Origin: Promethearchaeota archaeon
GTDB taxonomy: Archaea; Asgardarchaeota; Lokiarchaeia; Sigyniarchaeales; SOKP01
Length of the DNA stretch: 11,839 bases
Direction of reading: 5' to 3'
Assembly: GCA_011364975.1 (NCBI GenBank)
Contig: RDOE01000093.1
Span: 1-11,839 of the forward strand
Position numbers and translations under genes: made by a program. The first letter of the stretch is position 1; the number at the start of each line of letters is the position of its first letter. The notes beneath the pieces are model-generated. The model saw only the letters and a list, made by a program, of their open reading frames with translations. It ran no database searches and was not told the DNA's origin. Below, piece by piece: positions 689-4,707 of the stretch.

Positions 689-863
689 AATATTTACAAA
701 ATAAGCTAAATATTTATTTTTTTATTTAATAGTTCAAAAATTCTATAATAAATTAAAGATTTGGCATAAATAAATCAGTTATCAGAATATTTAAGAAAAA
801 CCAAAATTTTTTTTAGAAGCAATAACTTTAAAGAATTACAATTGGGGCTGTGGATTAGTGGAA

Positions 864-883
864 AAAAGTTTACTTTTCCATAA
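864..883 (+). other. Putative tRNA intron 1 in the D-loop (about position 20/21-21/22, ~20 nt; boundaries ambiguous by a few nt)
   Basis: Excess sequence between G18G19 (860-861) and the D-stem 3' strand. TGGAAAA 859-865 pairs with TTTTCCA 874-880, and exon GTGG can pair with insert CCAT as a 4-bp central helix of a relaxed bulge-helix-bulge. Removal gives D-loop AGTGGAA followed by GATC. Confidence 0.8.
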
Positions 884-920
884 GATCGTTCGCTTGGCAT
901 GCGAAAGGCCGGGGGTTCAA

Positions 921-951
921 TAAACTTTGGGAATTACCCATAATAGGGAAA
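921..951 (+). other. Putative tRNA intron 2 in the T-loop (30 nt; 58/59 = 921-950 or 59/60 = 922-951)
   Basis: 30 extra nt between TTCAA and ATCCCCC, with internal hairpin TGGG-AATTA-CCCA 928-940. Exon TTC can pair with insert GGA/GAA. Removal restores a 7-nt T-loop (TTCAAAT or TTCAATT). Confidence 0.82.
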
Positions 952-1014
952 TCCCCCCAGCTCCACTATTATTCTTAGTTTATTTTTATTCTATTAAATA
1001 ATAGATCCTTATAT

Positions 1015-2433: not shown

Positions 2434-4707
2434 TTGCTTATAGGTCGCTTTAAACTTACTAGAATTGAAGCAAAGAATATTGCACCAATCATTTTAGTCA
2501 TGCTTTTATTATTTATCTCAATTGCATGCGCTAATATGTTAATCCCTAGTTATAGTGCTATTAAAATTCAATTTGGAATACCAGAAACATTGCTTGCAAT
2601 ACCAGACGCCTTTTTTGTTTTAGTGAGTGCATTTTTTGCACTGATGTGGGGATACTATACCGATAGGATAAATCGAACAAAAGTAATAATGGCAGGAGCA
2701 TTTTCATGGACTTTTGGTATGATGCTGACCGCTCTTTCCTTTAATTATCAAATATTAATTATTTCAAGAATGTTAAGTGGCGCAGGTTTAGGTTGCGTTC
2801 TGCCAGTTGGTTATTCTATAATTGCGGATGCAATACCCCCTGATGAGAGATCCGGCTGGTTTGGTACGTTAGCAATCTTAAGCTCTGTTTCGAATGGAAT
2901 AGGTCAGGGGTTATCCTCATTCTTAGGACCAATATTTGGTTGGCAATTTCCATTTTTTCTATTATCCGCTATAAGTATTTGTATTGTTTTTATATTATTT
3001 TTTGTTAAAATTCCTCAAAGAGGAGCAAGTGAGGATGAACTTTTAGACCTTAAAGCAATGAATCTTGAATATCAGTATACAATTACAAAAAGAGATTTAT
3101 CTAAAATCCTAAAAAAGAAAACAAATCGATATCTAATAATACAAAACTTTTTTTCAATCATTCCAGGCACAATAACTATTTTCTTTCTAACCTCAATGCT
3201 AAACATCTATTTTCTATATGAAATTCCTACGGAAATAAGACTTCAAACAGCTACTATTATGGCTGGAATTTTAGGAGTGGGATATATTTTGGGAAATCTT
3301 TCTCTTTCATACTTAGGAGACATTTTATATAGAAAAAACAAAAAGAACAGGACAAGGTTAGCTACTGTGTGCATAATTTTAGCAATACCCTTTTTTATTG
3401 CTTGTCTTTTTTCAATAGAACCAATTCAAGTAATTAGGTTAAATATTACATATCCTGATCCTATTAATACACCCGAAATAGGATCATATATGTTTAGAAC
3501 GATATTTGAAATATTCAGAGTTTATCCAAATTATATATATTATTTTATATTCGGCTTATTGGGGACTATGTTTAGTGCAGGTCCTGTAGCCAATCGAAAT
3601 GCAATAATGATTGATATAAACCTGCCAGAACATCGCGGAACTTCAGTTTCATTTATGAATTTATCAGAACAAGTTGGTAAAGGTTTAACACTATTAGTTT
3701 CATACTTTTTAATATCTTACCTAGGAAGTATATTTAACATGTTGTTATTTTCATCATTATTCTGGATTCCAGCAAGTATATTATGGATTTTCGCAAATAA
3801 AACAGTAGGAAGAGATTTAACTGTAAAATCGATGATTTTATCAGAACGGCAACAAATAGGATTATTAGATTATGTCTTTGAGCTTGAAATTCAAATGGAT
3901 CGTGCAATCCAGAAAATTCAGGATTCAAAATACTACATTTTAAACGATCATAAGAAATTCAATGAGTTAATAACTAGCGCAATCAAAATTTTGAAATATT
4001 GTGAAAGAGAGAGTGAGAACAGAACTATAACAAATATTAAACAAAGAACTAACGATCTTTTAATACTTGCGGAGTCAATTAAAAGAATGGCAAATCAAAT
4101 TTATGAGATATTAGATAATAAAGATCTTAGCGAAAAAGAGATAGATATGCTAAATGAAGATTTAAAACAAATAATATTAAAGATAGCAGAGGGTGAAAAA
4201 AGCACTTTTGGAGAACTTCAAATTTATTTTGAAGATGCACAGTTGAAGATTGTAGAAGCAAGATTACTCCGAAAAAACGACTTATTGAGATGTGTGAACA
4301 AAATAGATGAAGCAATAAAAATATACGATAGAATTAAGAATCTTCTTAACGAAAGATTAGAAATAATCCCAGATAGTTCTCAATTATCAGAGGAAGATTT
4401 TTATGTTTATAACAGAGAACAAACCTTATTAGAAAAATGCATTTCTTCTCTTAACGCTACAAAAGAATTGAAGGAAAAAATTGGGAATGTCTTCACTCAA
4501 TTAGAAGAGCAGGGTATTACAAAAAAGGATTTAATAAAAATTTCTGAATTAACTCTTGAATACAATATTAACCTTTATCAAGTGATTACTGATACAATAG
4601 GTAATGAACATAAAACGAAGGTTGCTATAAATAACATATTAAAGAAAATCGATCAGATTTTTAATGATTATGACAAATGGAAAGAAGTGGAATTGAAAGT
4701 CTTTTAA
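2434..4707 (+). CDS. MFS transporter (~aa 1-460) fused to a ~300-aa soluble helical C-terminal domain
   Basis: MFS motif A in both halves (WGYYTDRINRTK; YLGDILYRKNKKNR), ISRMLSGAGLG, PPDERSG and PEHRGTS loop motifs, about 12 hydrophobic segments, then a charged amphipathic tail. TTG start. Confidence 0.92.
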   Translation: MLIGRFKLTRIEAKNIAPIILVMLLLFISIACANMLIPSYSAIKIQFGIPETLLAIPDAFFVLVSAFFALMWGYYTDRINRTKVIMAGAFSWTFGMMLTALSFNYQILIISRMLSGAGLGCVLPVGYSIIADAIPPDERSGWFGTLAILSSVSNGIGQGLSSFLGPIFGWQFPFFLLSAISICIVFILFFVKIPQRGASEDELLDLKAMNLEYQYTITKRDLSKILKKKTNRYLIIQNFFSIIPGTITIFFLTSMLNIYFLYEIPTEIRLQTATIMAGILGVGYILGNLSLSYLGDILYRKNKKNRTRLATVCIILAIPFFIACLFSIEPIQVIRLNITYPDPINTPEIGSYMFRTIFEIFRVYPNYIYYFIFGLLGTMFSAGPVANRNAIMIDINLPEHRGTSVSFMNLSEQVGKGLTLLVSYFLISYLGSIFNMLLFSSLFWIPASILWIFANKTVGRDLTVKSMILSERQQIGLLDYVFELEIQMDRAIQKIQDSKYYILNDHKKFNELITSAIKILKYCERESENRTITNIKQRTNDLLILAESIKRMANQIYEILDNKDLSEKEIDMLNEDLKQIILKIAEGEKSTFGELQIYFEDAQLKIVEARLLRKNDLLRCVNKIDEAIKIYDRIKNLLNERLEIIPDSSQLSEEDFYVYNREQTLLEKCISSLNATKELKEKIGNVFTQLEEQGITKKDLIKISELTLEYNINLYQVITDTIGNEHKTKVAINNILKKIDQIFNDYDKWKEVELKVF

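Follow-up and report, generated by a model that had tools for sequence, protein, structure and literature searches.

The window analysed here, an 11,839-nt stretch of DNA from a genome of a Lokiarchaeia genus, contains a 122-nt tRNA-Ala(GGC) gene (positions 844–965, forward strand) that is interrupted by two introns, one in the D-loop and one in the T-loop. It is very probable that this gene, the only Ala(GGC) gene found in the genome, is transcribed as a precursor from which the splicing endonuclease EndA cuts both introns, after which the exons are joined by the ligase RtcB and CCA is added.

Structure of the tRNA-Ala(GGC) gene

A hand parse of the sequence placed the discriminator at A965, and CCA is not encoded at the 3′ end of the gene. 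The acceptor stem is located at positions 844–850/958–964 (7/7 pairs), the D stem at 853–856/884–887, the anticodon stem at 889–893/901–905 and the T stem at 911–915/953–957. The 7-nt anticodon loop (894–900), with GGC at positions 896–898, is intact, and the variable region (906–910) consists of 5 nt. The D-loop region (857–883) has a length of 27 nt and the T-loop region (916–952) has a length of 37 nt, which is 20 and 30 nt more, respectively, than the 7-nt loops of the intron-free orthologs. Without the two inserts, the sequence gives a four-stem cloverleaf with conserved loop signatures and 21 stem pairs, none of which is mismatched. The pair G846:T962 corresponds to G3:U70, the established alanine identity pair, and it is accompanied by A73, also an alanine identity feature, and by the anticodon GGC.

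The gene is divided into three exons, all on the forward strand. Exon 1 (844–863) contains the 5′ strand of the acceptor stem, U8, the 5′ strand of the D stem and the 7-nt D-loop AGTGGAA, and the uninterrupted genes of three genomes of the same genus (G002, G053 and G055) begin with an identical sequence. It is followed by intron 1 (864–883, 20 nt), which is located in the D-loop at 21/22 and was delimited by ortholog comparison and an HBh′-type motif; the alternative limits 862–881 or 863–882 lead to the same spliced product. Exon 2 (884–921), a 38-mer conserved across the genus, comprises the 3′ strand of the D stem, the anticodon arm, the variable region, the 5′ strand of the T stem and T-loop nucleotides 54–59. 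Intron 2 (922–951, 30 nt), delimited by ortholog comparison and an hBH-type motif, lies in the T-loop between nucleotides 59 and 60. Exon 3 (952–965) includes T60, the 3′ strands of the T stem and the acceptor stem and the discriminator A, and it is invariant in 12/12 aligned orthologs with a T-loop intron.

A run of five T residues (983–987, forward strand), 18 nt past the discriminator, is a possible archaeal terminator. A perfect hairpin with 8-bp arms (CGTGAAAT/ATTTCACG) and a 4-nt loop was found at positions 1016–1039, ~50 nt past the tRNA gene. In genomes G011 and G008, the same arms follow the tRNA ortholog with comparable spacing, and the host genome contains only two copies of the hairpin; its role could lie in termination, in processing or in the regulation of the downstream gene. 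Further along the window (2434–4707, forward strand), there is an ORF of 757 aa, the first ~325 residues of which match the MFS transporter family, while the last ~430 residues have no Pfam match.

Detection of the gene by tRNA search tools

No tRNA was found in the window by ARAGORN, and the Rfam search at the gathering score gave no match to the window. The model RF00005 showed no tRNA match within positions 700–1100 even at E values of up to 10. The gene is therefore easily missed by default scans, as the first-pass annotation had supposed. When double deletions were introduced in silico around both inserts, a tRNA was called by ARAGORN in 3874 of 8118 variants, and all of the 20 commonest call lines were Ala(ggc). 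An identity of the inserts as group I or group II introns was rejected, given their sizes of just 20 and 30 nt and the lack of an Rfam family match in the window.

A custom cloverleaf scanner, written to tolerate one insert per loop and another in the variable region, was applied to both strands of the 3.74 Mb genome. The locus at 844–965 obtained a score of 29.0 with no stem mismatches, whereas the highest score in the control, the reversed but uncomplemented genome, was 22.5. Only 25 loci of the real genome scored at least 24.5, including 15 ARAGORN or Rfam calls and 10 new loci. Both the hand parse and the scanner thus agree with the first-pass annotation, which had recognized a complete tRNA-Ala(GGC) with G3:U70 spread over 122 nt.

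Orthologs in the genus

The comparison set consisted of 42 genomes of the same genus, and the Ala(GGC) ortholog was read in 27 of them, including the host genome. The exon-2 38-mer (with no more than two mismatches) is present in exactly one copy in 26/42 genomes, while a backwards control gave no copies; in the 27th genome, G007, the 38-mer is split. No intron was found in six orthologs (G002, G012, G014, G052, G053 and G055), and five orthologs carry only a T-loop intron (G017, G042, G049, G050 and G051). Only a D-loop intron is present in eight orthologs, at 15/16 in G010, G019, G020 and G044 and at 20/21 in G008, G011, G048 and G056. Both a D-loop and a T-loop intron are found in seven genomes, namely the host genome, four genomes with the same 20-nt D-loop intron (G013, G018, G022 and G054; the G013 ortholog has lost its 5′ end at a contig end), G005 and G024. 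The remaining ortholog, that of G007, has only a 28-nt intron at 43/44 in the variable region. Intron 1 is absent from 12/27 orthologs and has homologous 20-nt introns in the four genomes just named; intron 2 is absent from 15/27 orthologs and has homologs in 11 others. The alignment of orthologous loci, which had been suggested earlier as a check, thus revealed the same exons with zero, one or two introns in 27 genomes. It also agrees with the earlier placement of ~20 extra nucleotides in the D-loop and 30 in the T-loop, with an intact anticodon loop and nothing at 37/38.

In the intron-free genes, the mature loops read AGTGGAA (D-loop) and TTCAATT (T-loop). Since these genes fix the mature loops, the limits of the introns are 864–883 (or frames shifted by 1–2 nt upstream) and 922–951. 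In 6/27 congeners, neither intron is present and the gene corresponds to the predicted spliced product. The predicted 72-nt product is identical to the product in 16/25 other genomes, including the uninterrupted gene of G002, which RF00005 detects with 66.7 bits (E value 4.4e-13, cut-off 29 bits). Among the orthologs scanned by ARAGORN, tRNA-Ala(ggc) was called in 4/4 uninterrupted genes and in 0/4 interrupted ones, and RF00005 gave no match to the three interrupted alleles searched.

The products of the orthologs differ in the D-loop, by two compensatory stem changes and by one change at 13:22. One of the compensatory changes is located at 28:42 (U-A to A-U, in G044 and G019) and the other at 4:69 (G-C to C-G, in G024 alone); the single 13:22 change is also carried by G024. 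In an alignment of 12 alleles with the T-loop intron (A1), 17/17 exon columns are invariant compared with 10/30 intron positions. A D-loop reading AGTCGCA, without the usual G18-G19, occurs in the Ala(GGC) genes of four congeners (loci L104, L111, L118 and L126 in G012, G014, G052 and G024, respectively), and the G012 gene with this D-loop is still called tRNA-Ala by ARAGORN.

Additional Ala(GGC) genes were searched for in the host genome. Four perfect hairpins of the GGC anticodon type were found, three of them outside a tRNA context, in a search that a copy interrupted in the anticodon stem or lying in an assembly gap would escape. A BLAST search of the locus against the host genome returned only the locus itself and weak matches to other tRNAs. 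An uninterrupted Ala(GGC) copy elsewhere, which according to the first-pass annotation would, together with a lack of spliced junction reads, have pointed to a pseudogene, was thus not found in the host genome.

These data make it very improbable that the locus is a decaying pseudogene that has been inactivated by its inserts, with another tRNA-Ala reading GCC and GCU. The rejection of the locus by standard finders, the single mismatch in the central helix of the T-loop intron and the presence of an Ala(CGC) gene on contig C200 would fit such decay, but the exons match those of uninterrupted orthologs exactly and have not diverged as the introns have. Moreover, the stem changes in the genus are compensatory, and no pair is broken except by the 13:22 change in G024; the gene is kept in one copy per genome in 26/26 genomes holding the exon; and it has no Ala(GGC) substitute among the genes found in the host genome.

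Splice motifs

The motifs were evaluated using the standard geometry, with a 4-bp helix between two 3-nt bulges, each of which is cut after its second base. The motif of intron 1 is of the HBh′ type: the central helix (858–861/878–881) has 4/4 pairs, the bulges are located at 862–864 and 882–884, the inner helix is formed by 865–868/874–877 (h′ 4) and the outer helix is absent at the best-scoring boundary (h 0). The motif of intron 2 is of the hBH type, with the T stem as the outer helix (5 bp), a 3′ bulge at 950–952 and no inner helix at the 5′ site (h′ 0). The central helix of intron 2 (916–919/946–949) has 3/4 pairs owing to the mismatch A919/G946, which is common to G005, G049 and G051; 11 orthologous T-loop introns were scored, and the central helix has 4/4 pairs in seven and 3/4 pairs in four. 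Both inserts conform to the relaxed BHB definition (HBh′ and hBH), and neither has the strict hBHBh′ structure.

The structure of the T-arm precursor is supported by the alignment, in which 93.9% of cells are paired versus 47–66% with slid partners. A hairpin within intron 2 (929–931/937–939) shows compensatory changes in the orthologs, with three pairs changed on both sides. As for the D-loop, 14 introns are present in the genus, and for 13 of them a boundary can be chosen that gives 3/4 central pairs or more; the G024 intron reaches only two. The host genome contains six other T-loop introns with a length of 29–33 nt, located at 58/59 or 59/60 (H 3–4, h 4–5) in the genes of tRNA-Asp, Lys(TTT), Arg(CCT), Arg(GCG), Tyr and Leu(GAG).

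In the minimum free energy (MFE) fold of the whole precursor, the acceptor stem is kept and the D-loop intron forms a continuous 8-bp helix without a 5′ bulge. This fold is only modestly better than those of shuffled sequences (z −2.1; 5/200 shuffles equally good). Since the MFE fold alone reproduces neither the cloverleaf nor the BHB structure, the assignment relies on the ortholog comparison. A blastn-short search of the host genome for extra copies of either intron gave chance-level matches only (best E values of 0.094 and 0.79) and therefore no evidence of copying between genes. The seven T-loop introns of the host genome, compared by eye, showed no obvious mutual similarity.

Splicing enzymes

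Two genes of the PF01974 family were found in the host genome, on contigs C126 and C191. The protein encoded on C126 (EndA alpha, 200 aa) is most similar to the catalytic subunit of the A. pernix enzyme (3p1z_B, E value 1.6e-35). According to the alignment with 3p1z_B, it retains the Tyr, His and Lys residues, and the His column is occupied by Ala in 3ajv_B. The loop of the A. pernix enzyme is matched by residues ~48–66 of EndA alpha, in which K58 (by our own count) falls on the lysine of this loop, K44; the M. jannaschii enzyme aligns to EndA alpha only from residue 69. The protein encoded on C191 (EndA beta, 205 aa) has the M. jannaschii EndA as its best match (E value 5.7e-24) and contains Phe and Ser at the columns of the catalytic Tyr and His of M. 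jannaschii 1a79. The NCBIfam models of fused alpha′2 enzymes align with C126 alpha in their C-terminal catalytic half and with C191 beta in their N-terminal structural half. Typing of the EndA subunits, suggested in the first-pass annotation, thus gave a catalytic alpha subunit and a beta subunit without the triad, and the endonuclease of the host genome is an (alpha-beta)2 enzyme that bears the L1, or Crenarchaea-specific, loop. A gene for the RtcB ligase is located on contig C124 (E value 3e-166).

An (alpha-beta)2 EndA with an L1 loop has been reported for Asgard archaea, and a role has been assigned to the conserved lysine of the loop (PMC5829648). In the same work, the A. pernix enzyme is described as cutting a D-loop HBh′ intron and a 59/60 hBH substrate in vitro. 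The earlier suggestion that a broad-specificity endonuclease would be needed is in line with a genome that codes for an (alpha-beta)2 EndA with both the loop and the lysine. We assume that a precursor of ~122 nt, carrying two protein-spliced archaeal introns, would be transcribed from the gene. The (alpha-beta)2 EndA would cut both the HBh′ intron at 21/22 of the D-loop and the hBH intron at 59/60 of the T-loop, because its catalytic subunit has the specificity loop and the lysine that allow the cleavage of relaxed motifs. The three exons would be joined by RtcB into a 72-nt tRNA, and CCA would be added after joining.

It is extremely improbable that the inserts instead persist in the mature RNA and simply enlarge its D- and T-loops. 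Splicing is read here from the sequence, and inserts of this kind reportedly appear in tRNAscan-SE output as D-loops of increased size (bioRxiv 10.64898/2026.10.13.758758), but a T-loop of 37 nt would abolish the conserved 7-nt T-loop. In addition, the presence or absence of the inserts in orthologs is exact to the nucleotide, both of them have BHB-type geometry, and the endonuclease and ligase needed for their removal are encoded. The probability of an assembly or binning artefact, with inserts or a contig foreign to the organism, is negligible even for a fragmented assembly of 200 contigs with some estimated contamination, as the same D-loop intron occupies the same site in independent assemblies (G022, G018, G054 and G013), a homologous T-loop intron is found at the same site in 11 other genomes, and the gene is single-copy and typical of the genus. 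Because of the ortholog comparison, a pseudogene and an assembly artefact are excluded for practical purposes.

Other tRNA genes of the host genome

The host genome has a size of 3.74 Mb in 200 contigs, a G+C content of 30.6% and an estimated contamination of ~6%. Its EndA alpha is 76–83% identical to 80 loci in named MAGs. The titles of these loci mostly refer to Promethearchaeota/Promethearchaeia, names that stand for Lokiarchaeia, with a minority of Hermod-, Hod-, Thor- and Odinarchaeota or "uncultured archaeon", which accords with the Asgard-like genome recognized in the first-pass annotation.

With default settings, ARAGORN found 10 tRNAs in the host genome, one of which is a mis-parse inside the Lys(CTT) gene (C21:6609-6712), whose intron is a canonical one at 37/38; 21 tRNAs were found when introns in the anticodon loop were allowed. 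RF00005 also found 21, and the union with ARAGORN amounted to 25 loci. The scanner added 10 loci, including 844–965, which resulted in 35 loci, nine of them uninterrupted. The nine other loci found by the scanner only contain D-loop and/or T-loop introns and are not reported by ARAGORN or RF00005. They were assigned to Asp (C169:28515-28618), Lys(TTT) (C124:23937-24039), Ser(GCT) (C21:4205-4306), Arg(CCT) (C43:26544-26648), Arg(GCG) (C193:3839-3968), Tyr (C132:30319-30468), Leu(TAA) (C64:2291-2408), a second Leu/Ile-like gene (C106:29460-29638) and Leu(GAG) (C124:27534-27682). The proposal that the lineage may hide more such genes is thus supported by ten loci. No genes for Asn, Cys, Glu, His and Trp tRNAs were found in the host genome by ARAGORN, RF00005 or the scanner; therefore, more tRNA genes must be hidden or unassembled.

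The ARAGORN call tRNA-Ala(cgc) at C7:4599-4704 (reverse strand) was rejected: its acceptor strand GCAGATG has A3, so that G3:U70 is lacking, and the variable arm is long. Because of these two features, the locus reads, in a hand parse, as Ser(CGA) with an anticodon-loop intron. The tRNA-Ala(CGC) gene at C200:57858-57960 (forward strand) contains a 32-nt intron between nucleotides 32 and 33, not at 37/38, and the BHB motif around it is complete (H 4, h 2, h′ 11).

Intron turnover in the genus

In addition to intron-free alleles, the Ala(GGC) gene of the genus shows at least eight intron configurations at five sites (15/16, 20/21, 21/22, 43/44 and 59/60). A tree of RtcB, a single gene, was constructed for 33 genomes of the genus, all of them MAGs, with 77–82% identity to the protein of the host genome and 26 tips of known intron state. 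The presence of the T-loop intron requires a minimum of six changes on this tree (mean of 8.5 with shuffled labels; 15/300 shuffles as low), and the type of the D-loop intron requires a minimum of 10 changes (mean of 13.9; 0/300 as low). The intron states are patchy on the tree, and nearly as dispersed as randomised labels, as the counts for the T-loop intron show.

Since the sequence groups of the T-loop intron, judged by eye, roughly follow the RtcB clades, we favour an old T-loop intron with several precise losses, together with several gains in the D-loop, a choice that a single-gene tree of MAGs cannot settle. Rapid and ongoing gain of BHB introns with precise loss, or an exchange of tRNA alleles between lineages, is a less likely but real possibility. 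If this were true, the genus would provide a fine-scale natural series for studying how such introns arrive.

Discussion

Tests of the gene against known systems place it in a familiar class. In Thermoproteales, several BHB-type introns per tRNA gene are found at the D-loop and the T-loop, and the (alpha-beta)2 EndA has a Crenarchaea-specific loop; non-canonical and multiple introns in the tRNA genes of this order are said to have been described by Sugahara et al. in 2008. The gene studied here resembles those of Thermoproteales in having BHB-type introns in the D-loop and T-loop of one gene next to a loop-bearing (alpha-beta)2 EndA, although it belongs to a different phylum. The A. pernix EndA substrates (PMC5829648) have the same two motif classes in the same two places, but they are two separate tRNAs from other lineages, whereas here both classes are combined in one gene without a 37/38 intron.

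Among Asgard archaea, 92–95% of the tRNA genes of Atabeyarchaeia and Freyarchaeia have been reported as interrupted, often at non-canonical sites, and more than half of those genes carry several introns (Valentin-Alvarado et al. 2024, PMC11291895). Goswami et al. (2026, bioRxiv 10.64898/2026.10.13.758758) took a motif-free census of 90 Asgard genomes, in which inserts of the D arm were found to escape tRNAscan-SE, those of the T arm lay in BHB motifs, and gains were repeated. The gene at 844–965 is similar to these multi-intron tRNA genes, the introns of which are at non-canonical positions and often several per gene. Both studies are centred on Atabeyarchaeia, Freyarchaeia and Jordiarchaeia, and the string "Lokiarchae" does not appear in the main text of the census; in contrast, the host here belongs to a Lokiarchaeia genus, and one gene was followed through 27 congeners. 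Earlier publications have already described multi-intron non-canonical tRNA genes and an (alpha-beta)2 EndA with the L1 loop in Asgard archaea, and the gene is thus a case of a known kind, as described in PMC11291895, PMC5829648 and bioRxiv 10.64898/2026.10.13.758758.

The gene leaves the knowledge of the splicing mechanism unchanged. For Lokiarchaeia, it provides an example of a tRNA gene with two interruptions that is cleanly delimited and comparatively validated. Of the detectable tRNA loci in its own genome, more than a quarter (10/35) are invisible to ARAGORN and Rfam, and therefore, without intron-tolerant methods, neither the tRNA complements of such MAGs nor inferences on their codon reading can be relied on. 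The genus-wide series of presence and absence for one gene could be of use in investigating how introns are gained and lost.
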